A stretch of 35,875 nt of DNA. Source: Atractiella rhizophila (lineage: Eukaryota). The notes beneath the pieces are model-generated. The model was not told the DNA's origin. It saw only the letters and a program-made list of their open reading frames with translations, and did not search any database. The stretch covers positions 62,001-97,875 of the forward strand of contig MU271309.1 of NCBI GenBank assembly GCA_021432655.1, in the 5' to 3' direction. Made by a program: the position numbers and the translations under genes. The number at the start of each line of letters is the position of its first letter. Position 1 is the first letter of the stretch. This document shows, piece by piece, positions 4,920-31,106 of this stretch.

Positions 4920-7900
4920 TGTCCCGTCCTAAGAAAAAAAAATGGTGCAAACCAACGCATCCATGCTCAGCAACAAAGGCGGGAGGAGAGCCCATCGGAT
5001 ACACCTCAGGTTGCTCCACCTTCGCTCAGAAAGATGTCATGCAGGATTGCTGCAGCGCTTCCAGGTTACACAACTGACACCACCTCAGCATTTGACCCGT
5101 CAAATTTGTATGCAGCAACAGCAGGAGGATGAACCTCCTAGAGGACGCCGACGCGGATGGCAGTCAGACCCTCCACCTTTATGTGAAGAATTCAATGACA
5201 GTTCCTCTGATGGACAACAAGAAGGAGTATTTGAGAAGACTAATCTGCCTGATCAAACAGTGGTAGCTCCTTGGGATGCAAGACGAGATCAGCATCCTTT
5301 TCTCACATTCAATTACTTACCAGACACAGTGGAGGCAATCCGACTTTGGGGCTGGAATGAATCTCGACGATACAATAGGCCAACAGGTCATGGCATAGGA
5401 GAAATTGCAGTGCTTCTCATCGGCGAACAGTCAGGAGCTATGGCAGGTATCACAAGGGACATTGTGGTTAAACTTCGACATCCTGATGGTCAGAGTTTCT
5501 TTGAGAGAGTTAGTGATCAGATTGCCAACTATCTTCCTCTACGCTTCCCACTTTTGTTCCCCTACGGCGAGCAAGGTTGGCACTCATACATCCCCCTCAG
5601 TCATGGAGATCTGCTTCTACGGGGTCCACGAGAAGATATCGAAACGATGAAGGACGAATAGTTGGTAATATGGAGAACAGAAACACATTACTCAGATGAA
5701 CTATTACTCTTACTTGCTTCACCTAAAGAAGGACACATTCTCTCTAATTCACCATGGTGGCCGGCTCTTTCAAGAATTGGTTTGTGATGCTTATGCTCAG
5801 ATAGAAAGTGGATGATTGAGGTTCCTGAGGTACAATCAAGAACTTCTCCGAACTGAGTCTTATGCTGGACTTGGCGATGCATTAGAAGATGGTCGAGATG
5901 CTGCAGATGTTGGGAAGCGAACCATTCTACCATCGTCACACACAGGAAGTCCCCACCAGATGAACCAGCAATGCCGATTGTCGGGAACCGGGTTCACCTG
6001 CTATCTTCACAACTTTCACTTACAATCCACGGTGGCCAGAAATCACAGAAGCTCTCCTTCCTGGGCAAACAGCTGCCAATCGACCAGACTTGGTCTCTAG
6101 AGTTTTCAACGCAAAGGTGAAGGCTTACATGCAGGACATCAAGGATAACTCAATCTTTGGACGGTCAGTCGGCTTTGTCTGGGTGATTGACTTTCAGAAA
6201 CGCGGTCTCCCCCATGCTCACATCCTCATCATCCTCAATCCTGAAGATACCATCAGGGATGTTGAGGCGATCGACCACATAGTATCTGCCGAATTGCCTG
6301 ACAAGGATAGAGACCGTGAATTGTTCGAGATTGTCTGCAATCATATGCTTCATGGACCCTGTGGAGATATCAACCTAGATGCTCCATGCATGATAGATGA
6401 TCCTAAAAATCCTGGAAGAAAGATCTGTGGCAAAGGGTTTCCGAAGCCATTCGTAGAAGAAACAGAAACAGGCATCAATGAGGATGGCTATCCCACCTAT
6501 CATTGCTGTAACAATGGACGTACCTTTCAGAAATCGTGGAATGGATTCATTTACGACAATTGATGGGTCGTGCCGTTTAATGCTTATGTCCTTTGTCAGT
6601 TTACAGCTCATATCAATGTGGAACTCTGCATCTCCATCAAATCAGTCAAATACCTGTTCAAATACATCTACAAAGGAAATGATCGGGCACAAGCTGTCCT
6701 TCATAGTGCCCGAGGTGATGTTAGGGTAGTGGATGAGATTCAAGAGTACTTGGATGCTAGATTCATCGGATCTTCTGAAGGTAAGTGTTTAGAACTACTC
6801 TGAGATGATGTCAGGGCTTATTTGATACAATTTTACAGCCTGTTACCGGATTTTCCACTTTACTTTACACCAGCATTTTCCTGTGGTTATTCACTTGGCA
6901 GTACACCTTCCTGATCGGCATTCTGAGACCTTTAATCCTCAGGATGAGTCCTTGGGTGACATTCTCGGCAGGAACAACATTGCTAAAACAATGTTGACGG
7001 AGTTCTTCACCTACTGTCGGGAAAACCCCAACATTACTGAAGACCTTACCTATCCTAAGGCTCCTCAATTCCTTACCTGGAAGTCAGGCTCATGCTCTTG
7101 GAAAATCCGGGAGAAACAAGAAGCTATCGGCCATATCTACTATGTTGCGCTGTCACAAGGGGAGTTATTCTATCTCCGAATGCTTCTGCATCAGGTCGCC
7201 AGCCCAAAATCTTTTGAGCCTATCCGAACAGTAGAGGGAACTGTCTATGAAACTTTCAAGGCTACATGTGTGGCTCTTGGGCTATTAGAAAGTGACGAAG
7301 AATGGGATTATTGTCTCAATGACGCCAGCACCATCAAGAATCGCTTTGCGATGCGATCTCTGTTTGTCTACATCCTGCTATTCGGAGTCGCCAGCGAACC
7401 CAGAAGATTATGGGACAGCCATCATGAGCAACTCAGTGACGATTGTAAACACCTTCTACGGACAAAATATGGTGTACACGATCCAACGAACGAACAAATT
7501 ATCAGCCTCTGTCTCCTCGAAATTGAAGATCTCCTCCAGGCTCATGGTAAATCCCTAAGTGACTTTGGACTACCACATCTTGCAGAGCGACTACAAAGAT
7601 GGGGAGGCGAGACAAGGATTATTGGAGAAGAACTTGCATATGATCGACCACTACTTCACGCACATATTCAGACAGAGTTACCGTTATTAAATCTGGACCA
7701 ATGTCATGCTTATGACGCGGTTGTAGAAGCATGGCAAAGTGGAAATGGTGGATTATTTTTTATCGATGGGCCAGGAGGGACTGGAAAGACTTTTGTTGAA
7801 AACCTATTACTCGCTACAGTGCATTCAGCGGGGAAATTGCGCTGGCAGTGGCCTCTTCCGGTATTGCCGCTATTCTGCTGGAAGGTGGACGAACGGCCCA

Positions 7901-8287
7901 TACTCGCTTCCGGATCCCATTGGACATTGAAGCTGATTCCGTCTGCGGTGTTACAGCTCAAAGTGATCACGGTCGACTTTGTCGAGAGGCAGAATTGATA
8001 ATTTGGGACGAAGTGGGAATGAGTCATCGATGGTGCTTTGAAGCAGTTGACCGGATGCTGAGAGATATATGTAAGGTGGATGTGCCTTTTGGTGGAGTTA
8101 TTTTGGTTCTTGGTGGTAAGTGAATCAAGTCAAAGAGTTCATGTCTGATAAATAATTAGGCGACATGCGACAATGCCTCTCAGTCATCCCCAAAGCTTCA
8201 CATGTGCAGATCGTCAATGCATGTGTCATCAACAGTCCCTTTTGGCCAGCAGTTCGAGTCCTCCCACTCACAGTAAATATGCGCCTG
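4920..8287 (+). pseudogene. Helitron RepHel (HUH replication initiator plus PIF1-like helicase), degenerate
   Basis: N-terminal YNRPT..EIAV..RDIVV..PLRFPLLFPYGEQGW; ILPSSHTGSP; FTYNPRWPEI; RPDLVSRVF. Rep motifs FQKRGLPHAHIL (HUH) and HINVE..KYLFKYIYKG. Intron 6781-6838. Walker A GPGGTGKT near 7768-7791; IIWDEVGM; PFGG..GDMRQ; ends at VNMRL. Several stops and frameshifts. Confidence 0.96.
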
Positions 8288-10099
8288 CTCCGTCGTCGGG
8301 CCAAAATGAGCACGGTGCGTTTGCTTATGGGCCAACCATTACAAAGAGACAGGGGAGCTTCCAGTGTCCAATAGAGGTCAGTCCATCTGTTTATTGTCAA
8401 GTGAGTGCTCATGATACATTGCAGGAAGGCATGTAAAAACATTTAAACTGCTTAATGATCCAGAAAAATGTGAAAATCTCCGTACCTGGCTCCATACAAA
8501 TAAGTGGTCAATGGATCCAACAAAGCTTGCCCAATTCCACGTCAACATGATGGTCCTGCTCGCGCTGGAAAAGTACGTGAGGCAAACAATCCGAAAGGAG
8601 ATTCCACAAGGGTTGAAGAATTATCTTGATGTGGAGCTGTTTCCTGGCATCCGATTCAAGCCGGGACCAAAGGGCATCTCACTGAGGACGGGCAAGAAGA
8701 TGGTTGAAGAAAGAAGGGTTTAAATGGACATACTACAAGAAGGGCCTGTACTTTGAGTATGTCTGTTGCTGGATTTGTGTTGTGGAGTGTGGCCTGATTT
8801 CCTTTGGAGTGGTCACGAGCGACCAGATATTGTCAAGTACCGGCAAGAGGTTTTCATTCCCAAGTTTGAAAGCTATATCCCGCTGCTCCACCGATAAGAA
8901 GTGGGAAATGTGATGAAAGAAGTTGTCAAGGATCTTGCCCCCGATATCCGCCGAGTTGTCCTTGTCTCTCACGACGAGTCAACTTGTAATGCGCATGATG
9001 GCAAACACTTCTCATGGGTGCTTGATGGGCGAAATAACCTTCTAAAGAGGGGACAAGGTCGTGGTCTGCACCGATCAGAATTTATTTGCTCGACTAAAGG
9101 ATGGCTGGAGGAAGCTAGGGAGCAGCTGGAGTATGGGAAGAATCATGAGGGATATTGGAATGCTGAGAAACTGGCTGAGCGGGTTTGCATTCTTTCCTTG
9201 TGTATGTGCTGTTGTCAGTTGATGATTGTGTGTCCAGGTTAAGAAACAGTTCATTCCGGTTTTTGAACAGTTAGATCCACAAGACCAGGCGGTTGTCATT
9301 TTCGATAACTCAACTGGCCATGCAGCTCTCGCAAAGGATGCCCTGAACACTAAACATATGAATGTCAACTCTGGTATGTACTTTATTTACTGGTGTCATC
9401 GTATGGCATTGCTTACCTTTTATCAGACGGGGCACAAGCAAAGCTGAGAGATGGCTGGTGGGTGGATGCAACTGGGAGAAGACATGTCCAGCAGATGGTT
9501 TGTGACGATGGAGCTTCCAAAGGGATGAGGGTTGTCTTAGAGGAGAGAAACCTGTGGTTGCAGGGGCTGTGGGGGAAATGCAAGAAAGTTGCTGACCATT
9601 GTAATGATCACAAGTGTTGTGCAGGTAAGGTTCTCCCTTTGACTTTGAAAGTTTACTTACATTTGTGCTAGAGAGATGGCTTGCAGCCCAGCCAGATTTC
9701 TTGGAGCAGAAGCCGTTTGTACAAGAGATTCTGGAGCAGAGAGGCCATTATTCAATTTTCCTCCCAAAGTTTCATTGCGAGTTAAATTTTATTGAGGTTT
9801 TTGGGGAGCAATGAAACGATATATCAGAGGTGAGCTGCCAGGTTCCCACCTGCCTGCTTTGTGGCTGACATATGGAAACAGAGAATTGTGATTATACCTT
9901 TGAGGGATTAAAGCGAATGTTTCCAGAAGGTTTGGGGTCAGTGCCATTGTCAATAATACGCAAATTTGAGCATCGGAGCCACCGCTGGATTCAAGCTTAC
10001 AAGGAAGGAAAGAGTGTGATTGATGCTGAATATCAACAGAGGCAGTACTCTTCGCATCACAGGATTCCTGAGGCACGAGCAGCTCGGGAAGATCAATAA
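8288..10099 (+). pseudogene. IS630/Tc1/mariner-superfamily DDE transposase with long D-E insert, 5'-truncated
   Basis: WANHYKETGELP, LHTNKWSMDP, first D in VSHDES, GYWN, second D in IFDNSTGH, KGMRVVLEER, CCA..QPDF, and E in LPKFHCELNFIE. Introns at 9374-9426, 9625-9671 and 9830-9881; 1-nt frameshift near 9800. Confidence 0.9.
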
Positions 10100-10429
10100 T
10101 TTGCAATAAAGCCATATATTTGAATTAGAGTCAGATAATTTTCTTATATACAGATAATAATGGTATCTGAACCACTCTTCTTCGCCTCAACAAACTTCTC
10201 CCCCAGCCATACCCAAGCGGTCAATCCAAAAAAAAAATTATTCATAATTTGGAATTGTGCATCATCAACTGTCATCAATGAGTCATGGTCCGTCACACTG
10301 GTTGCGACTATAGTGCGGGTCGGCTCGTCCCAACCCAAAGTGCACATCAAAAAGTCAACTGCGGGAAGAGGTCCAATTCACTATTCCTCTTATAGATAGT
10401 ATATTTAGGTCCCTAGGATCCAATCTGTA

Positions 10430-12615
10430 AGACAGAATTTGGATAGCTTGCCTTCACACGAAAGGGTGGACGTCAGACCCACAATTCAGGAAAGTGATGT
10501 TCCTCTAAATGATCAGCAATACCCTGATACAACGACTGAGCCTACGTTCACACATATGCGTCCTAGCATTCCTCCTGAGCCACCTTCGTTCCCTCCATCG
10601 ACCTCGACTCAAACGGTCCCACCTCCTCGCCATTCCACGCGAAAAAGAATCCCGAATAAGCGTATCTTCAATGATGACTACGTGGTTGATCCGAAATACA
10701 AAGACATCTTGCGCCTTGCTTCAACCACCTGCGCTGAAAGAAGCGCTGTGTCTCCTGAGAGCTTGAAATTGGGCACTTGCATGGGGGCCAAGCACGTAGT
10801 GGTGGACGTCAGACCCATCCAACGTGAAAGTGCCTTCGCTTCGCATGATATGCACGTTGCTAACAGCAGTTCTCCCCTCGCGGTTCGGGTGGATGAGCTC
10901 TCAAAAAAGGACGTACAAGAAGCAATTCGCAAACGGCGCCAGACAACCCTCTTCGTCCAAACAACCTGCCTTCGACTCCGTGGACTACATGTTCTCAACG
11001 CGAGCGCTACAAGATCGTGGCTGGACCCTACGAGAGCCCCGTAGTCTCAAGGAGGCTCTAGAGAGCAATGAAGGTCCTGATTGGCTCCAGGCGTGTCGGA
11101 ACGAGTGGGAGAAACAGTTCCTAAACAAAACCATAGAGGGTGAGCCGATAGAGCTTCCTGAAGGAGAAACAGCTACACCTCTCACGTGGGCGTTCTGACA
11201 CAAATATGGTTAGAAAGCCTAAAAGCATGTATCTGCGTCAGGGGAGACCTTCAAACTCCTACTGGGGATCCAACTTTCGCTCCAGTAAGCAACGGTGAGA
11301 CGATTCGCGGAGTAGTTGCCCTTGCTGCTCGTGAAGACCTATCCATCTATCAAGCCGACTACGAAACTGCATTCCTTAACTCCCCAATAGACACCTCAAA
11401 GACCTGAATCTACATTCGTCAACCCCCTGGACTAGAGAAACCTGGAACAGAAGGGAACGTATACCTTCTAAAGAAAGGACTATATGGCCTGTTGGAATCA
11501 GCTCGTCAGTGGTTCGACACGCTCAAAGAAGACCTCCAAACGAAAGGTTGGACTCCCCTATGGTCCGACTCCTGTGTCTTCATGAAGAGGGTAGACGGCA
11601 AGCTCTACATCTTAGTCGTTTACGTTTACGACATGCTCTTATTGGGGAAGGATCGAGGAGTTGTCCAAAGACTTTAGTAGGAGCTAGGACCTCATTTGCG
11701 ATACGAACACTTGGGAAAGTTGGGAAATTTCTTGGAATGGAAGTTAAACGGGATTGGGAGAAGCGCACGATTAGCCTGACTTAAAGAGTCTACACGGCGA
11801 CAATTTTAGAGAAGCTTGGATTCACGAACAGCTACGCGAGTGTGCCTGCAAATCCAAAAGCGAAACTGGAGCCATTCGATGGCGTTTGGACTGAAGAAGA
11901 ACTCGCCAACAAGCCTCACTGGTCTTTCCTGGAGGCCACCGGATGCCTCAACTGGCTTTCAATTTGCACACGGCCAGATATAACGTATGCACTCTCAAAC
12001 GTCCAGCGATTTGCAGCCAACCCGGGTCCAAATCATTCTAAGGCAGTCAAACAAATCTTCCGTTACCTCAGCGCAACCTCGAATAAAGGTTTGCTATTTG
12101 ACGGCAACGATCGGAGACCCCTTCACGCATACGCTGACGCCTCCTTTACCTCTCTTCTTCTCTCTCTCAAGTCGCAAGAAGGTCGGCTCACCATGCTCTG
12201 TGGAGCACCCATCACTTTCAAATCAAAACCACACACAGTTGTCGCCCTTTCTTCTGGAGAAGCAGAATATGGCGCTGCCGCAAAGGCAACTGCAGACCTC
12301 TTGTGGACGAGAGGTCTTTTCGACGAACTAGGAGCCCTAGGAAGCGTCCATAACGTGTCTCCTGGAGAAGAGATCCCTCCAACGACTGTCTTCGAAGACG
12401 ATCAGGCGGCAATAAAGATCTCAACAAACGGCGTTCACCACGCGCAAAGCAAGCCCTTCCTGCTTTGCTATCATATGGTAAGAGACAATGTGCAAAAAGG
12501 CAACATCGTACTACGATACATACACACCAAGCACCAGATTGCCAACATTCTCACGAAACCTCTCTCAAAGGATGTCTTTCACCAATGCATATTCGCCATT
12601 GGAGTACGGGACATC
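10430..12615 (+). mobile_element. Ty1/copia pol fragment (linker, reverse transcriptase, RNase H), degenerate
   Basis: PRHSTR linker; EPRSLKEAL; TFAPV; QADYETAFLN; LKKGLYGL..SARQW; YVYD in place of YVDD; TRPDI; YADAS; VALSSGEAEY; QIANILTKPL. Stops and frameshifts; no gag, integrase or flanking LTRs seen. Confidence 0.95.
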
Positions 12616-12619
12616 GGAG

Positions 12620-12965
12620 AGCGCCTTACTTTCACCGAGGATCTAATTTTTTTCGACAAAACACTTGCATTGCAACTTGCAATAATATCTTGGAGAAGAC
12701 ATTCGAAAAATGCATTTGGCCACACACCTTGTTTGTCCATCCCATCATTTCTGCATGTTGTCGCATTTTCTGTTTTCTTACTTTCTTACTTGGTCTGCTC
12801 AGCATTGGGAGCGAAGTAGATTCTCATGTTTCACCTCTTTATTCTCAATCTGATACAGTACAATAGGAAACGCTTCGGTGTTGGGAACCTGCCTAAGACA
12901 GCTGAACAGTTTCTCGAACGGCATAAGTGTTCAAGCAACCCCTATTGCAATGGTTTGGGAATGCC
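12620..12965 (+). pseudogene. Alpha-kinase (eEF2K/MHCK-type) C-lobe fragment
   Basis: NAFGH resembles QAFSH. FGVGNLPKTAEQFLERHKCSSNPYCNGLGM (12871-12963) resembles the FGxGNLG..F..H-x-C..C..L zinc-binding tail of alpha-kinases. Confidence 0.65.
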
Positions 12966-21111: not shown

Positions 21112-21127
21112 TAGGCTTGGTATGTGG
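21112..21127 (+). mobile_element. Displaced hAT TIR (5' end of the element at 21393-30454)
   Basis: TAGGCTTGGTATGTGG versus TAGGCTTGGTACATGG at 21393. It is preceded by CGCTAAAC, the reverse complement of GTTTAGCG that precedes the other TIR. Confidence 0.85.
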
Positions 21128-21132
21128 TTTTG

Positions 21133-21308
21133 TGTGAGACTCTACTGCAAAAAGCGAGTTCCTTTAGCTCGACTAGAGCGAGAACTAAGAGGCTCAATCA
21201 ATAAATGAGAGCTTAAACGAGAAGGAGAGACAGGAACCAGCTTATGCTAGCCACATTGAAGTGTAGGGCCGCTTATCAAGCTATCCGGGTTGACCATTGT
21301 ATCTCACA
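21133..21308 (-). mobile_element. LTR-like element, family B, short copy (176 bp)
   Basis: TGTGAGA...TCTCACA ends; reverse-complement match to 30460-30482 and 30974-31106. Confidence 0.85.
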
Positions 21309-21644: not shown

Positions 21645-24400
21645 TCACCATCCTTCCGTTCTGTGCTCCGCCTCCGCCGCCGTCTTTCTTGCCACCTCCG
21701 CCGCCTTCCTCTTCCTCTTGTCATTCTGTTTCACGGCTTCAAATAACTCCTTCATTGGAGGCATGAATCCATCCTGCTCCCACAGCTTGAGCATCATAGC
21801 CAAACGAAAGATGGGGTCCGACAATTGATGACAGAAGTAAGAAACTGTGAAACGACCCGCTGAAAAGGCACGCTCAACATCCACCGAAGTTGCTAGCAAG
21901 TTCAATGAAAGTAGGAAACAGAAGTGAAACTGCATACCTGGGACTGCCATAATATCCAGAGCCATCTCGTGGAACTTCAAACGGAAATGCTCCTTCGCAT
22001 GCTTTGCTTCCCGCCATTGCTGAAAGTGGTACTTGAGGCCGTCCAATTCTGTTGTCCCAAAACCATCCTGTAGGGTCTTGATAGGCAATGGGACACCTTT
22101 GAAGAATTCAGCAAGGTAGTCGGCAGTAGAGTTGTCGTCCGCATCATCGATCATTGCGTCGAGTGCGTACAAGGTCCGAGCCTTCTTTCGGGGACGTGGC
22201 ACAGATGTAGATGCCTGTGAGCAGCGGCTCCTGCCTCAGTTGTGGAAAGCAAAGCATACAGGTTGGACGCACTGGGTTACCCATTTCGACCTTATAATGC
22301 TCTCGCTGAAACTCCTGCAAGCTATCCATGGCTTCCGTTATCCAAGCCTCTTCCCAATCCAACTTTTTATGGTATGCAGCACGACGGTTGGGATGAAGCC
22401 CTAGAGTATCTGTCAGCTTCAGTGCTGAAATGTCTGAGTAGGAAAATATGCAAAGAGCCCATAGATAGATCTTAGAATCTTCGACTACTTTCAGAAAATA
22501 TTTGTCCAAAACTGTCTGTGCAGTTGCAGCACCGGCTTGGATGGCAGCATGCTTCTCAGGAATGTGAATTTCGCCGGCAAGCTCGTAAGTTTCGTAAAGG
22601 CGAGAAATGTGGACGCTGATATTATTGAAGAGGGGAATGATGCTGGCTAAATTAGAGAAGTTGGCCCTCCACATCCAGTCCGTTGCCTGTTTGAAACAGC
22701 TAGGACAAAGTATTAGCTTCTTAGATCAAAGACAAATAAACAGGAAAGACACACTTGCAGAGTCGGATTTGCTTGTTCCATAAGTTCCCACTCCGTTCTC
22801 GTTAATCAGCAGCGTTCAAGTTTTAAGCTTGGTTTACCACAAAGATTTCGCAGTGCCTCTTTCAAGTCTGATAGTCGATCAATCATCGCACCTTCACCAT
22901 TCCAACGTGTGGGACAAGCCTTGACAAGGTGTACAGGAGATAGAAACTTCAGAGGTCCTTCGGGATCCTCCTTTTGAAGAGCGACAATCTCATCATCAAG
23001 TTTGCTTCTGAGCCCATCGTTCAATGCCGTCCTTTGGGCCAGACCAGCAAGCTATTTCATTAATTAAAGGCAGAATTCAAGGAAAGTGAATTGTTGAAAG
23101 ACAATCACTCAGAGGCGTACCTTTGTGAGCATGAAACGAGACTCTAATTCCTCCTTCGCAGAACAACTTGCTTTCGACGCAGCCTCTTCTTGAACTGCAT
23201 CAATTGCCACCGCCTGTGCTTGGGTTTCTTCACTTAGATCTACGGCAGAAGCATCAGAAAGTTACAGCATTTGACTAAACTATACCTTCTAGTTCTGCCG
23301 CTTCTGTGAACCCTGACTCTCTGAGTTCTGCTTCTAATCGTGCTAATGCGACTTCATCCGCCATGATGGAAGTCCCAATACCTGCCACAACCCGCTTCTT
23401 CATAACTGCCTTCTTGAACCTGCTCAAGAATCCCTAGACATTTTACTATCAATCAGTCCACCTTTCCATTTTACAGATGAAACTATTACCTTTGCTACTA
23501 AGTTGAGTATTTGGTCTAAGCATCTCACCCGTAAATCCGCTCTCCAAAGAAGCATCTTCGGATACTTGACCTTGTTTTCCATTGCCAGCGTAAATGTATC
23601 GTTGTTAGATGCGCTGTCGCATGCTGGAGCCATGACCTGTGCACCACGTTAACTCAGGAAGAAAGACTCTATGCACAGACGTAAACACGCACCCTCTCAC
23701 GCATCATATGAATCCAACAGGTCATAGACCAAAGCAGCAATGTTATCTCCCGAATGAGAATCAAGAACACTGTTGCTGTGTTGGTTGCCACAATGAGGAG
23801 ATTCATACGGAATGAAACCAAGAGCAAGTTTCTTCCCATCCCCACGTTCACGGAAGTGAAGGTACACGAGGACATAGCTAAAGCCTTGAGGAGCTGTCCA
23901 ACCATCCAACATAATGAAAAATTTCCCAGGAGCAGCATCGATAGTGCGTTAGTATTCTACGTGAGATTAGAACAGGGTACATACCGAAATTCTTGCCTTC
24001 ACCTTCGCACACACATACCCCTGTAAGTATTTCGCATCCTCTACTATTCTGTGACGATCAATGTTTGGAACACTCTGTGATCCGGGCGTTCATGATAATG
24101 AACATAAACACTCGGCTTGTCGCTGTTCTTGTGAACTTTGGACCTTCCTCAGCGCTGGATGTCGAAATCTATTGTGATATCAGCAGGAAAATTAGGATGA
24201 AGTATCGGAACAGACCAACCAATGATCTCGTCATCCTTCCAACCTTCAAAGCTGGTGTCCATCTCGAAGTCGACCCCTCGTGGTAGTTCTCTCGAGCATG
24301 CTTTCGAGGGACCTGCGAATGGAGTCTGATTCACTGAGATCATCATCTGACGAGTCAAGCTTAATCGCAGTGAGTTTTGAGGATCAGGTGTTCGCAGGGG
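21645..24400 (-). pseudogene. hAT transposase, degenerate, multi-intron
   Basis: LDGWTAP (D1); CDSASNN (D2); RCLDQILNL (CxxH His lost); KACPTRWN; LHP; EMALDIMAVP..ATSVDVERAFSAGR (E). Confidence 0.93.
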
Positions 24401-25242
24401 GGCTGATGCCCTGTCAAGTTCGGTTTGGGATTTTGGACGATTTGGGACGATTCTGGCTTTATTAGGGAACAACTGGGAGGCGCTGCAGGAGCCGTGTGGC
24501 TGCGCGTGCCGCAGCGTCAAACGATGATGGGCTCGATCATAAAGATGAGATTTGGGGCTGGATTTGGAGGGGAATTGGAGTTTTTGGGACAGCAGTGAGC
24601 GTTACTGGTTATCAGATATATCAGAAGTGGTGACATTGCCTTTTTTGCATGGGCTACTAAGTGAGTACATCTATCTTGTCTCAACCTCATTCGGCTTTCG
24701 CATAGCAACAATGCTCCCGAATTGGGGTCAACAGAAAGAGACGCAAGAGCCTAGAGGCTACAATGAAAAGTGCGTCGTTCTCATAGGCAGCGTGTGTACA
24801 TTAACTGGATGTTGCACCTCCTCCTTATCCTCCGGTCAGCTTATGTCCCAGTCCGTTTCATACTCTGATAGCGCTGGGAGTCTCTAGTAGGTTGTATTTG
24901 CGATCTTCTTCTTCCCTCCTGTGACTCTGGTCTCATATTTATTGCAGTAGGCTCCTCTGCCATGACCATGGTGGTCACCACCAAACGACTATATTTAATG
25001 ACCACGCCTGGATAATGCCGGTCAGTGGTCTGCTCATCGTTCGAAGCGGCTTGCTGATAAACTTGGACATTGCTACACACAGAGGATGCAGCCAGCACCA
25101 GATGGAGACTACACTGTCGCTGCGCCAAATTGATTCTTCGCTCTAAGGTGTGTCGTCCTTTCTCTTCTCCTACCGACTTGCTCACGCTGGACGCTCTAGC
25201 AGCACGCATTCCCCTTTGCGAAACCCCAACCCCCCGCAACCG

Positions 25243-25259
25243 CCCCCCCCCCCCCCCCC
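25243..25259 (+). repeat. Poly-C tract (C17) in a C-rich segment
   Basis: Read directly. Confidence 0.9.
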
Positions 25260-25474
25260 GGGGCCCCGGCCACGAAACCTGATTTTGAGGGAAGCACTCA
25301 GTGTGATTCGGGCTATGTTCAAAATCAACGGACTAAGTGTACTTGAGCTAGAAAGATTGTGGCTTACGTAGATCAGAACAGCGGTCGCTTGACAGTTAGG
25401 AAATGGAGATTAGGACTATCTCGCAGATGAAGTGAGAGTCAAAGTATTACAATCTAGACCGTTGGAATGTACAA

Positions 25475-26519
25475 TCAGTCTGTTTCAATTCCTGAGCCAC
25501 TCAACCTTTCCACAATGAACCAATCACCATACCACGGCCTCGGAATAATGGCCACAACTTCCTCTACCTGTTTAACACTAATTACCTCAAAGTCACCTGG
25601 AAGTGCAGGCTGGCACGTTATAAGGACTCCGAAAGGGTCATGTCGTCGATAACCTCGGTAAGGATGGATTAGCGCAAGTGAGTGGGACAGAGTCCCAACC
25701 TTTAGTTGTAGGAAATATATAACTTCGGCGTACTCAATTGAAATGACAGGAGGTCCAGCACGGTCAACCTCGGGGAAAGTAAGCCGCTTGTATTTGACAT
25801 TGCGGCTGATGCAAACGTCCTCAGAGGGCCGCTGGACCTCTTTCCACTTTGAGCGGACAATCTCATTATTTGGTAGCTGCAATCTTGCCCATTTGACAAA
25901 GCAACCATTCCAAGCATCAGATAGGTGCCAGTGTGAAAGATAAGCCTCGACTGCTGAGCGCTCGTCAGAACAGGATAGTTGCACATCCGCCTCACGAGCA
26001 CGTAGGAAGCAGAAAGAATTTCCGAGAGGGGCGGCACCGCGGGGAGGAGGTCTTTGAGTCTGAGGAAGGATAAGGGCTGCATCGATAGAGCGGATTGCCT
26101 GACACTGAGCTTGGCGCATTGTTTCCTGTGCCAGATTTTCATAAGGTCTTGAATGCTGACGGATTCGGGATCCTAACAGTCCAATCGTGCGCTCCAACAT
26201 CCACTGTGTGATGTAGATGAAGGGTCCCACTCGTCGTGTTTGTTCACAAAGGTGGAGTAGTTTGTGAACAGAAGGACGGCAAAAATGAAGCCTTTTGATG
26301 TCGTTCTGATAGTAAATCTGTTCAAATTCTACGACAAATTCGATTATCAGCTTCTCCACTGAATTGAGCACTCAATAAACCAGCATCCCTAGACTTTTCC
26401 AAAAGCCGTTGAGCCCTCTCATGTTTAAAAGCAGTTGAGCGCTTGACCTCAGTCAATATTCCTCCACAAAATATCTCACAGTCACAATAATACGTCCCTT
26501 CATTTGCCGTTGTATCCAT
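25475..26519 (-). pseudogene. CACTA/Tnp2-like transposase with the central catalytic region deleted
   Basis: N-terminal YCDCEIFCGG..VKRSTAFKH (C-x-C..C..H) joined out of frame near 26375 to the C-terminal FEQIYYQ..SVHKLLHL..GPFIYITQWMLERTIG..PYENL..KWARLQLPN..SRNVK..YAEVIYF. HxLxH..GP..ER is typical of Tnp2-type transposases. Confidence 0.75.
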
Positions 26520-26661
26520 TCTATCTAAATCATTTGGGTTACACTGACCAATATCTGTTTTTACATAGTTCGCTTCCGAATACATACCATGTGATGCACT
26601 CGAGCGAGACTCCTTAAATCCTTCTTTCAAAATCAGCATTATCTATCCTTCCTTCCAACCC

Positions 26662-28980
26662 ATGGATCCCATGGACGACATTCTTTTTCCTGGAGCTCAA
26701 AATCATTTGAGCGAAATAAGCGGTTCAAAGGGGAAAGCAGAATCAGGTAATGTTTTTTGGCATATCTCTTTTCTTTTTCTCTTCTGACTGAATTACCAGG
26801 CAATCAGCTCGGTGAGCTTGATGACCTATTCATGGGCAGGCGTGCAGACGAAATGTGGAGTCAAGATGCTAATACATGGCCATCCACACCGTCCTTCAAT
26901 TTCAAGCCGAATTTGCCGCCCCAGAGCTTTTCCCCTACTGAGATGGCTGCAATTCGAAAGGCTAACCAGACGACGCTCTTGGAAGCTGGGAATACTGTTG
27001 TGATAGAACTTCTGTTGAGGATTAGGTATTTAGAAGGGAAGATTGAGACCTTGTGAGTCTTTCTTCTTTATGTAGTTCTAAGCGGGCCAATGGGAACATT
27101 TATTGCAGGGAAAAAACAGTTGCCGTTCCGCTCAACTCTCAATCACCCATCATTACGGCAGGACCATCCACTTCTTCCACACCATCCTCACTCTCCAACA
27201 CTCCCACACCATCCTCACTCTCCAACACTCTCCGCTCACGCCTCCTTTGTGGTACAGGAATAATCACCGTGCCATCCAGTTGGCAGCAATCTGACTATGC
27301 GTATCAGTCGATTTCGCCGACACGTCCGGACACGATTCCAGAGCATCTTTGGCTGGAAAACCTTTGGAATGCATGGAAAAAGGCACAGAAGGAGTCCGGT
27401 AAGAAACCAGGGAAGCTGACCTGGCTAGTCGACGAAGAATGTAACCGCCCTCACCGATTTCCTGTCACAAACAAGCTATCGCCTTTCGGTGTGGAGAAAT
27501 GTCCATCGAACGGGTCAGGAAGGAATGATTGGTGTTATGGAATCTCTTCACCCTGAGCTCACACTGTGTGGTGATCATTTCAAAGCCCAATTCTTCCTGC
27601 AGGAACAGTTGAACGAGGTCCATAAGTTATGGAGAGAGGAGGATGGATTGGAGCCCAAATTTACGAGGCTGAAAGGGGAGGCACCTGACGGATTAGAATC
27701 CTCATTAGGGTCTCGACCATCGACTCCTTTGCCAGCTTCTTGTGCTGGTGTCACACTAAAGTCGTATTTCTCTCTATTCACAATGGAGATTGAGCTTATC
27801 TTAGTCTCCTGCACACCTGTTTGGACAGGCGGAAGCCTAATAAGCGAGCGCGAACAAGGTATGCCATCTTCTAGGCATCCACATCTAGCGTGACACTAAA
27901 CAGGGGAACAGCTTTCATGCATCATTGCAAACCGCGGAGACGATTGCCTTGAGAGATGAGAATCTGAATAGCGAGCCTGGTGAACCCGATACCATGGAAG
28001 TGGACATTGGGAGTGGTATGCTTGGTTCAATGTGTTCATAAATTCGGTTGATTCAGTGTGTATAGCCCAACCTGGTTACCTTGGTCACTCTACTTCAGTA
28101 GGCTCTACACTGTTCTGCAATGCCTTTCGAATCATCGCTAGGTCATGCTACCATCTCAAAATAGTGGGAATTCCTCGAACCCAGACACAAATGGAGATGG
28201 CTTAACAAGAACTCCAGGTGTTTGCCGTCCGTCCTTTTGCGAGCACACACCCCCCTTATCCCAGGCACTTCTAATTCCTGCAACTCCCTTGCCTGTACCA
28301 CCGGCACCTCCAGATGCCCCATCTCTCGCCACACCTCCGCGTCACTTATCCTGTCCACAGGCGACTAACCAACGTCCTCTTCTTGGTTTTGTTGATGAAA
28401 TCCGGGATGACCCTTACACATTGTGTTCTTTCGTTCCATCGACCGTGCTTTACTTCTCTTTCTCATTATCCTAAAGGGTCTTACTCCACCAGCACGAGCT
28501 ACGACGCCACCAGGAGTCTCAGTCAGTCATAATAAAGTTAGGAAAGGACCCGGGTGATTTTGGTAAGCACCTTGTTTCCATCTTCTGTGCAGTTCCATGA
28601 CTGACAAAAGACGTCGCCTCACTGTTCCTGTCAAGTCGTAGCCTCCACAAGCAGAATTCCACTCACACCTGGAGCCATTCCTATCCACATTACGGCCTGC
28701 AGGAACAACTCAGAAACCACAATTGGGAACGGAATGGACCTAAACCCGCTTAGCGGAACATCGACAACTAGATTCCCACTCGCACCTCCACTCCCAATCA
28801 TCCCCCTCCACGTTGGAGCCCATCAGAACAATTCCGAACATACCAACAGGGACAGAATCAATGTGAAGCCACCAGGCATCTCCCCAGTAAGTTTTTACTA
28901 ACTGCTTACTCTTACCATTCTGACAGCGGGCAATCAATGTTAGCATCCGATGGTGCTGACAGCGTCTCAGGATCACAATC
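26662..28980 (+). pseudogene. Multi-exon accessory gene of the 5.3 kb element, function unknown
   Basis: ATG at 26662; intron 26747-26799; coiled-coil-like IELLLRIRYLEGKIETL; S/T/P-rich linker; WNAWKK; ESLHPELTLCGDHFKA; low-complexity tail. The 3' limit is uncertain. Confidence 0.5.
27177..27230 (+). repeat. Tandem repeat, 27 bp x2, in frame (TPSSLSNT)
   Basis: CCACACCATCCTCACTCTCCAACACTC twice. Confidence 0.9.
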
Positions 28981-29253
28981 ACAATAAAGGGCAGTACGTC
29001 TGTTTCTATATCATGTCAAGGACACAAGACTGATGCTAGTCTGTGGCAGGGCTGCATTTCTTCGTTATCGACAGAACGAATGGCGAGTAGAAAATCCGGG
29101 TGCCCCGCTCCCTCTCCCAGCGATGTTCAAAGCCGAGTACAAACAGCTCAGTTCAAAGGAGAAAAATGTATGCCTTCGCACTCCATAGAGCCCGTTGTGA
29201 TGTTTGAGCTACCTTTAGAGCTGGAACAAACTGGCCAGTCAACAACAGGCTCC

Positions 29254-29289
29254 CTCAACGGCCTCAACGAACTCAACGGCCCCAACGAC
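29254..29289 (+). repeat. Degenerate tandem repeat, 9 bp x4 (CTCAACGGC)
   Basis: CTCAACGGC CTCAACGAA CTCAACGGC CCCAACGAC. Confidence 0.8.
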
Positions 29290-30459
29290 CTCTGTTCTCG
29301 CAATGCAATCTTCCGGACCGAATCCCTCTTCCCCAAGACCCACGTTGCATCATCAATCGTTTCCTCATCCTGCCAAGTGATGTTACTGTTGGCACTATGG
29401 ATCCCGCTGTGATTTAGGAGAGAGATTACTATGGTATGGGAGTATTGGGCAATGATATATTTGATTGCAGAGAAGGAGCTCTACCCAAAATGTATATATT
29501 ACTCCCACTTTCATCCACGGATCCCAAAAGAGTCCCAAAAGCGCCTTTAGCTGTGCATTGCAACTGAGTAGACTCATTGCACCAGAAATCCCAAAACCTC
29601 CAGGACAGGTCCAAAAAGTCTACGTGATGGGACAATTTGGGAAGGTTCCCAAAACCGTTCCAAACTGTCCCAAGACCCCAAACCGAACTTGACAGGGGCT
29701 GATGACTGGTGTCTGGGCCCACAGAATCTTTTCGAGTGTACTTGGACATGATGTGATGTCTGACAAGAAAACAATGAGTGATTGCCAGGAGCTCATTCCT
29801 GTTTTTATACCTTTGCAGGTCAGGTTACGGCCGATAGAGACCATGCTCCGCTGATTGCAAGGTCAATCAGACAATTTCATCAGCAGAGCACCTTCCATGG
29901 AAGCAGTATCTCATCCGCGATGGACTCGTCCGAAGCAGGCACTGAAATTCACAATGTTATAGCAAGGGCAGACACATTCAAATCCATTTGCACGACTCAG
30001 CAACTGAGGAGCAATTGGGTAGTATGCATTCAACTTCATGGAGAACATCGTCGGAATCACATAATTCTGTTAATATTGTCATCCGGGTTCTTTCAGCAAC
30101 AAATTGTATACTAAGCTTTTCATAGCTCTTTCTCCAATGCCCGCGTAGAATCGAGTAGAAGGCATCAAATTCTCTCCCCAGTTCAACCAATGACATAAAA
30201 GAAGGAGTCTCGGCCTTTACTTTGAAACGGGGGCGAAGCATACATCTTCTTCATGAGAGGATCCAGCGTGAACTGGTTGCACTCATAGCTTAGTTGCACA
30301 GTTTCGGGTCAAACCCGCGGGTTGCCACAGGTTTCGAATTGGCAAATGTGTTTCCCATCCCCTTCCCTTCCCCGGAAGGACTTTCCCACCGAACCCGTGG
30401 GATTCCCATGAAGGGAAGGGGATGGGCGGGCCATAGGTTCTGACGGGATCCATCCAAAA

Positions 30460-31106
30460 TGTGAGATACAATGGTCAACCCGCTCACATGCGGCAATACC
30501 TTCCTATTCTGGAAGCGGCTCCTGCCTAACTTGGAAGTCACATTGACCACTGTATACCTCACAACTCCCCCGTCTCTCTACACCTCTCCTGTCGGCTCCA
30601 AGCGTGTACAATTGATCGGGAGAAGAAGGGAAGATAACTACATGGTATCTTAGCCTTATCCAGAAGCTGGAAGGCAAGATCCGTCGATTCCCTGGTGAGC
30701 CTTGTTTGATTCCCTTCAGCTTCCTCTTCGTTCCATGCTTTCCGACTATTCTATATTTCTATCTACTCATGTATTATGGGTTTTCCCGCGATGTTGTTTG
30801 ATCTTTTATCCGATTCATTGGCCTATAAAGAGGCCTCACTTGTTAATGTAAAATCATCTTATTCCTCATCATCTTACTTCACACTCACAGCAGAAAGCGC
30901 GGTAAGAATCGAGGTAAGCTCCCCGGGCCGAAGAAGCGCCCCTGTAAGATTCATTCTCTTCGTTCTGAGACCAGATAGCTTGATAAGCGGCCCTACACTT
31001 CAGTGTGGCTTGCATAAGCTGGTTCCTGTCTCTCCTTCTCGTTTAAGCCTCTTAGTTCTCGCTCTATCGAGCTAAAGGAACTCGCTTTTTGCAGTAGAGT
31101 CTCACA
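30460..31106 (+). mobile_element. LTR-like element, family B, long copy (647 bp)
   Basis: TGTGAGA...TCTCACA ends; TATAAAG near 30824; both ends shared, inverted, with 21133-21308. Confidence 0.82.

Follow-up and report, generated by a model that had tools for sequence, protein, structure and literature searches.

The window, a stretch of 35,875 nucleotides of Atractiella rhizophila DNA analysed here at its full length, harbours a transposon-like element with CCC-starting ends, a Tnp2-like gene and the same seven bases on either side. The question raised by this locus is whether the seven bases are a genuine target site duplication (TSD) and, if so, whether the Tnp2-type enzyme or some other transposase is responsible for it.

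Boundaries of the element and its empty sites

The element occupies positions 24409-29697 of the window (5289 bp; the A. rhizophila assembly comprises 51 Mb). The features assigned to it and to its flanks are as follows.

22996..24408, minus strand: left flank, multi-copy host repeat, which resumes at 29698-30452; the element is inserted into the reading frame of the repeat
24402..24408: left TSD, GCTGATG, 7 bp; single in empty paralogous sites
24409..24429, plus strand: left (A-end) terminal inverted repeat (TIR), 21 bp, perfect, CCCTGTCAAG...; similarity extends to 24447 at 82%
24424..24590, plus strand: A-end subterminal TT(T)GGGA(C)-like motifs, five copies, putative transposase-binding sites
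25475..26371, minus strand: C-terminal part of a Tnp2-type transposase, 64% identical to residues 502-797 of P0001, the transposase of a sister copy
26369..26370: breakpoint of an internal deletion, 2240 bp long by comparison with copy L028, showing 2 bp of microhomology (CA)
26371..26642, minus strand: what is left of the 5' part of the transposase gene, including a Cys-x-Cys-x2-Cys motif (ORF 26322-26642)
26751..27893, plus strand: second gene in divergent orientation, probably spliced, of no named family; tblastx identity of 39-50% with sister copy L021 (E 8.5e-30)
29520..29673, minus strand: B-end subterminal TTTGG(G)A-like motifs, seven copies
29677..29697, minus strand: right (B-end) TIR, 21 bp
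29698..29704: right TSD, GCTGATG; single in empty paralogous sites

The preliminary description of this DNA had proposed perfect 21-bp TIRs starting with CCCTGTC, and both ends were indeed located and are fully complementary over 21 bp; over 39 bp the complementarity of the ends amounts to 82%. Short TIRs accompanied by subterminal repeats are expected of EnSpm/CACTA elements (clade CMCT). GCTGATG, reported earlier on both sides of the element, could be compared with sites from which the element is absent, as the surrounding host repeat (window 21645-24408 and 29698-30452) is present in at least nine other copies, and the insertion breaks its 5' reading frame. Seven paralogues, out of nine other places listed for the repeat, were fetched, and in all seven the element is missing, the left flank passes directly into the right flank and the 7-mer occurs once.

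With symmetric ends, 7 bp is the only TSD length that fits the window copy exactly. A run of G residues beside this copy also permits readings of 8-10 bp if the right end is shortened, and an 8-bp TSD had been entertained previously. However, in paralogue L279 (95% identical) GCTGATG is preceded by C, not by G. Since the 7-mer is single in the empty paralogues and C stands in front of it in L279, the duplication is fixed at 7 bp and the 8-bp reading is disfavoured; in agreement with this, no match at k=8 was obtained among the group 1 ends described below. TSDs of 8-10 bp with asymmetric ends were rejected on the basis of the empty sites and of the lack of census matches at k=8-10.

Several other repeats were noticed in the window. 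The minus-strand ORFs of the host repeat carry what we take to be hAT-like motifs, with no Pfam match. A TG...CA-bounded, solo-LTR-like repeat lies at 30460-31106; a second copy, shorter and in inverted orientation, is found 9-10 kb off at 21127-21308, and positions 4933-8123 hold Helitron fragments with matches to PF14214 and PIF1 helicase. The region 10409-12819 is, judging by its motifs, presumably a Copia-like pol remnant (no Pfam match at the thresholds used), and the fragmented ORFs at 8415-9671 contain motifs which we assume to be those of a DDE transposase of no assigned type, again with no Pfam match.

Length of the target duplication in related elements

A census of TSD lengths was undertaken for the relatives of the window copy, referred to as group 1 and defined by at least 58 ends of the CCCTGTCAA type, from which 1653 pairs were compared for reverse-complement matches of the flanks. 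For k from 2 to 10 bp, the matches numbered 57, 32, 6, 0, 1, 11, 0, 0 and 0, and the numbers expected from the observed base bias were 64.7, 24.5, 10.1, 0.06, 0.26, 1.30, 0.02, 0 and 0, respectively. The excess is therefore seen at k=7 (11 matches versus 1.30; a uniform base composition would give 0.10 and overstate the significance) and not at k=2-4. All of the 11 matches pair complementary A and B ends within one subfamily (145 such pairs), and among the 11 facing pairs located on the same contig, six are exact at 7 bp (0.009 expected) and one more has a single mismatch. The preliminary description, which maintained that no 2- or 3-bp TSD fits and proposed that TSD length be tabulated for other TIR pairs, is thus borne out by the copies found elsewhere in the genome.

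Exceptions were also recorded. The element at C171:16748-22376 has a 6-bp TSD, and that at C119:62950-71349 shows either 9 bp with one mismatch or 7+2. Two facing pairs, on contigs C1 and C187, have no TSD, and their ends match ends on other contigs. In the near-complete copy on C187 (L068, G000:C187:27100-34040), the left flank corresponds to that of an end on C16 and the right flank to that of an end on C1, a pattern suggestive of misassembly or of copies having recombined. At two further places, G000:C315:15341 and 22894 (L076) and C83:4989 and 20207, the two ends are complementary and their 7-mers match, but both lie on the same strand, that is, one end has been inverted together with its flank.

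The flanks themselves are symmetric. Across 57 distinct group 1 flanks, the palindrome correlation reaches 0.96 at k=7 and does not exceed 0.28 at any other k; T occupies position -5 in 40 flanks and A position -3 in 39, and at positions -7 and -1 G or C predominates. The resulting target preference, SWTNAWS, is palindromic and centred on the 7 bp, with weaker preferences about 5 bp further out.

These data bear directly on the suspicion that the boundaries have been misplaced and the element is an ordinary EnSpm with a TSD of 2-3 bp, or that its ends are asymmetric and its TSD measures 8-10 bp. Although the G-run of the window copy permits the longer readings, and CCC-ended animal TRC elements are given 2-bp direct repeats in the available portion of DeMarco 2006 (PMC1636069), we consider both versions extremely improbable: the 7-mers vary from insertion to insertion and are single in empty sites, neither k=2-4 (no excess) nor k=8-10 (no matches) offers an alternative length, the symmetry of the flanks peaks at 7 alone, and the copies on C5 and C13, which have no flanking G, still show 7 bp.

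The trait also extends to three further Tnp2 groups of the genome (groups 2, 3 and 4), which are 23-24% identical to P0001. The 33 ends of group 2, of the CCCTGGAA (CCCTGG) type, gave six matches at 7 bp, including one that is internal and spurious; of the six true facing pairs, four match at 7 bp and two are without TSD. The terminal 18 bp of these ends (L119:523-540 and others) form an imperfect palindrome. For group 3, with CTCTATG ends, two matches at 7 bp were found among 16 ends. In group 4, with CCCTGTG ends, one of two pairs matches at 7 bp and the other, on C33 (L115/L183), shows a 4-bp match only. A search for the ends of three further families, L122/L123/L124, L126 and L117, located none. 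At G000:C3:250900-250955 and C1270:1381-1415, an element of one 7-bp group is inserted no more than about 55 bp from the end of an element of another.

Metagenomic data were scanned as well, with agaricomycete-like homologues, and yielded 80 loci, 45 of them with CCCAG-type ends. Among the 13 facing pairs with both flanks, three are exact at 7 bp (L214, L220, L250), one matches at 2 bp and nine at no length; matching 7-mers on different contigs were counted as chance, and three rows without a full flank were dropped, including L198, which matches on its six available bases. The ten pairs with no 7-bp match are probably due to collapsed repeats. The palindrome correlation of the metagenomic flanks again peaks at k=7 (0.94).

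As a comparison, one Tnp2 element of the genome with CACCG ends (L133:564-6788, G000:C112) is bounded by a 4-bp repeat, TATC, the only pair among nine ends of this kind. The earlier characterization of the window copy as a CCC-ended, CACTA-like element with a 7-bp duplication therefore stands, although the trait is wider than that and belongs to a fungal Tnp2 clade with CCC or CTC ends. The atypical integration stagger proposed for it is likewise common to its close relatives and to divergent Tnp2 groups.

The transposase and its association with the ends

An undeleted transposase, the recovery of which had been recommended, was found in sister copy L021 (G000:C602), a 6999-bp element with 23-bp TIRs of the same kind, the TSD ATCTAAG and an open frame of 797 amino acids, P0001. 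The protein matches PF02992 (Transposase_21, Tnp2) at 41.9 bits (cut-off 28.6), and alignments reveal conservation of its residues D143, D234, C253/C258, D355-x2-H358, H536/H540 and E560; the spacing of the Cys pair is C-x4-C in group 1 and x2 in groups 2-4. The motif set described for CMCT transposases consists of D-D-E, C(2)C and H(3-4)H (PMC12730594), and P0001 fits it, as the conserved residues are those of the set. A search of PDB sequences returned unrelated weak matches only. The AlphaFold2 model of P0001 (pLDDT 85.6) has as its best Foldseek matches RAG1 (E 1.3e-9), ProtoRAG and HzTransib (E 1.5e-4), so that a RAG1/Transib-like fold is predicted, and no P or hAT structures are among the fold matches listed for the model. 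Those homologues of the transposase that carry a name come from fungi, and sequenced agaricomycetes contain homologues in abundance; searches aimed at plant and animal reference transposases likewise gave fungal proteins only among the named matches, and a scan of viral contigs produced no relative.

In the window copy, the frame at 25475-26371 retains H-x3-H and the catalytic Glu and is without both Asp; it has a match to PF13960 below the cut-off (E 2.7e-5), and the PF02992 domain has been deleted. The other side of the 2240-bp deletion is confirmed by copies L026 and L027, and the 5' remnant shows 44% identity to L021 over 39 amino acids (tblastx). Because the 2.24-kb deletion took both catalytic Asp residues, the window copy is, by its sequence, non-autonomous. 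Within the element, 3' of the transposase gene, positions 25228-25267 comprise a long stretch rich in C and, after it, a short GGGGCCCC palindrome. The protein of the second gene has no Pfam match and bears a weak likeness only to unnamed Basidiomycota clusters (score 0.93, low recognition); conceivably it may play a TnpA-like accessory role.

The preliminary description had further assumed that the Tnp2-like gene belongs to these TIRs, and had named its location in a separately bounded nested element as the contrary finding. Near-identical copies join the gene unbroken to either end, and a search for an inner TIR pair within the element found none. This evidence also weighs on the proposal that a different enzyme with a 7-bp stagger (a fungal P-like, hAT7 or Kyakuja transposase) moves the ends, with the Tnp2 gene carried as cargo or representing a nested element. 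A stagger of 7 bp lies within the 7-8-bp range of P, hAT7 and Kyakuja, Pfam may miss fungal P-like enzymes, and hAT7 and Kyakuja are named as makers of 7-bp TSDs in Kojima 2025 (PMC12730594). However, the Tnp2 gene is found within all four end types and within the metagenomic elements, and the end type tracks the transposase subclade. The 47 ORFs (at least 150 amino acids) of seven bounded elements matched only PF02992 and PF06869 in Pfam, with no P-, hAT- or KDZ-type transposase and, as in P0001 itself, no PF18759 (Plavaka) among them. Furthermore, the hAT7 consensus ends listed in the accessible part of the supplement to PMC12730594 start with CA, and Kyakuja is without TIRs according to the same paper. 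The intervention of a different enzyme is consequently judged very improbable.

The relationships of the transposases were assessed by a quick IQ-TREE tree of 26 rows and 580 columns (20 rows from a 48-row FastTree run and six new ones), rooted on two DWF-motif fungal Tnp2 proteins and restricted to in-genome and database fungal rows. In this tree, a single clade unites all 7-bp groups with their homologues at an SH-aLRT of 92, below the 95 mark and hence a level classed as neither shown nor rejected; L133 with its relatives sits apart from it and the DWF-motif elements also fall outside. The alternative in which group 1 joins the CAC type is narrowly rejected (p-AU 0.044), having been named post hoc, after the tree.

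Taken as a whole, we regard it as highly probable that internal deletion has reduced an original of about 7.5 kb to the non-autonomous copy in the window, and that the element is of a fungal Tnp2/EnSpm-type (CMCT) lineage whose own transposase makes the 7-bp stagger. A role of Tnp2 as the mover is suggested by the tracking of subclades by end type, by the copies that tie the gene to both ends and by the restriction of ORF matches to PF02992 and PF06869; as the maker of the stagger, it is inferred from this association.

Relation to known transposons and significance

RAG and Transib use a 5-bp stagger and CAC ends, and their excision goes through hairpins at the flanks. By analogy with these and with CACTA elements, a dimer of the Tnp2-type transposase would bind the TIRs and the subterminal TTTGGGA repeats and excise the element, probably via flank hairpins. 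A symmetric and probably bent target would then receive the two 3' ends at points 7 bp from each other; its central T-N-A may serve as the deformable step, and host repair would duplicate the 7 bp. A deleted copy such as that in the window would be mobile only in trans, and the rare 6- and 9-bp cases may represent slips of the stagger or later indels. The 5-bp TSD of Transib/RAG was not encountered (no group 1 match at k=5), and the ends are CCC or CTC, not CAC. RAG1/Transib structures (PDB 6cg0, 6b40, 6pqx) are the best structural matches of the predicted model, with about 10% identity and a TM of about 0.4-0.6.

Among described transposons, the EnSpm/CACTA elements of the CMCT clade (PMC12730594) share with the present ones PF02992, D-D-E, the Cys pair, H-x3-H, short TIRs, subterminal repeats and a second gene. 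However, CMCT lineages generate TSDs of 2-5 bp (2-3 bp in EnSpm/CACTA) and have mostly CA..TG (CACTA/CAC) ends, as opposed to 7 bp and CCC/CTC here, and their Cys pair is C-x2-C, in contrast to the C-x4-C of group 1. Plavaka A/B (Kojima 2025, PMC12730594) also belongs to CMCT and occurs in basidiomycetes, but has TGT..ACA or CATCA..TGATG ends and 2-3-bp TSDs, neither of which was seen here; the Plavaka loci of the genome are situated elsewhere. Fungal CAC-ended EnSpm elements (the rust EnSpm families and Cryptococcus CNIRT6) have Tnp2-type DDE transposases as well, yet their CAC ends and 3-bp TSD, as presented in the available portion of PMC12139950 (3 bp for CNIRT6, TA for CNEST), set them apart from the 7-bp clade.

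The ends are also reminiscent of animal TRCs (SmTRC1, Aedes, Tribolium), which, in the portion of PMC1636069 at hand, combine CCC termini with Transposase_21; the Aedes TRC TIR given there, CCCAGTCAAC, is closely like the CCCAGTCAAA ends of the metagenomic elements. A Cnidaria-rich PF02992 cluster was matched with a score of 0.97. The likeness to the TRCs is one of ends and domain, and their 2-bp direct repeats differ from the 7 bp found here. Finally, hAT7 (PMC12730594) provides a precedent for a fungal sub-lineage marked by a 7-bp TSD, but has a hAT transposase and CA ends.

The literature searches revealed no 7-bp EnSpm, including the portions available of PMC4455052, PMC3227409, PMC12477816 and bioRxiv 2025.02.11.637652. 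The earlier suggestion of a candidate undescribed lineage thus holds for the literature searched, Repbase, which has fungal CMC entries, being outside that scope. It is compatible with our explanation, and affects novelty only, that the clade already figures in Repbase as fungal EnSpm with 7-bp TSDs. This could be argued from the 28 fungal CMC entries mentioned in the accessible part of PMC5751038 and from the abundance of homologues in sequenced agaricomycetes. Nevertheless, we think it rather unlikely: a Repbase curator in 2025 gave CMCT 2-5-bp TSDs in the same paper that named the 7 bp of hAT7 (PMC12730594), and in its supplement, as far as available and for TET-carrying families only, 29 of 30 tabulated EnSpm rows begin with CAC and none with CCC.

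As the element works like an EnSpm/RAG1-fold transposon but departs from the published EnSpm/CMCT termini and TSD length, we take it to represent a widespread, probably undescribed 7-bp-stagger variant of EnSpm/CMCT. A bolder view, which we put forward as a tentative possibility, is that these elements make up a CMCT lineage in their own right, as yet without a name and equal in rank to Plavaka, ESTA or Lanisha. Its defining features would be a catalytic motif of the DGAQ type (replaced in some families by DGAA/DGAS), CCC/CTC ends, the 7-bp stagger and a palindromic target spanning about 17 bp, and it would be abundant across Basidiomycota. If so, the stagger range of RAG1-fold transposases would extend to 2-7 bp, and if the CCC-ended animal TRCs were its sister group, a switch from 2 to 7 bp would have occurred with nearly unchanged ends.

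Superfamilies of DNA transposons are diagnosed in part by the length of their TSD, with 2-5 bp stated for CMCT, and annotation that relies on structure would overlook a large 7-bp fungal clade or assign it wrongly to P or hAT, above all where copies are non-autonomous. RAG1-fold enzymes would form a natural series of 2-, 3-, 4-, 5- and 7-bp staggers, in which the determinants of active-site spacing and of target bending could be tested directly; for an assay, one copy offers both ends and an open 797-amino acid frame.
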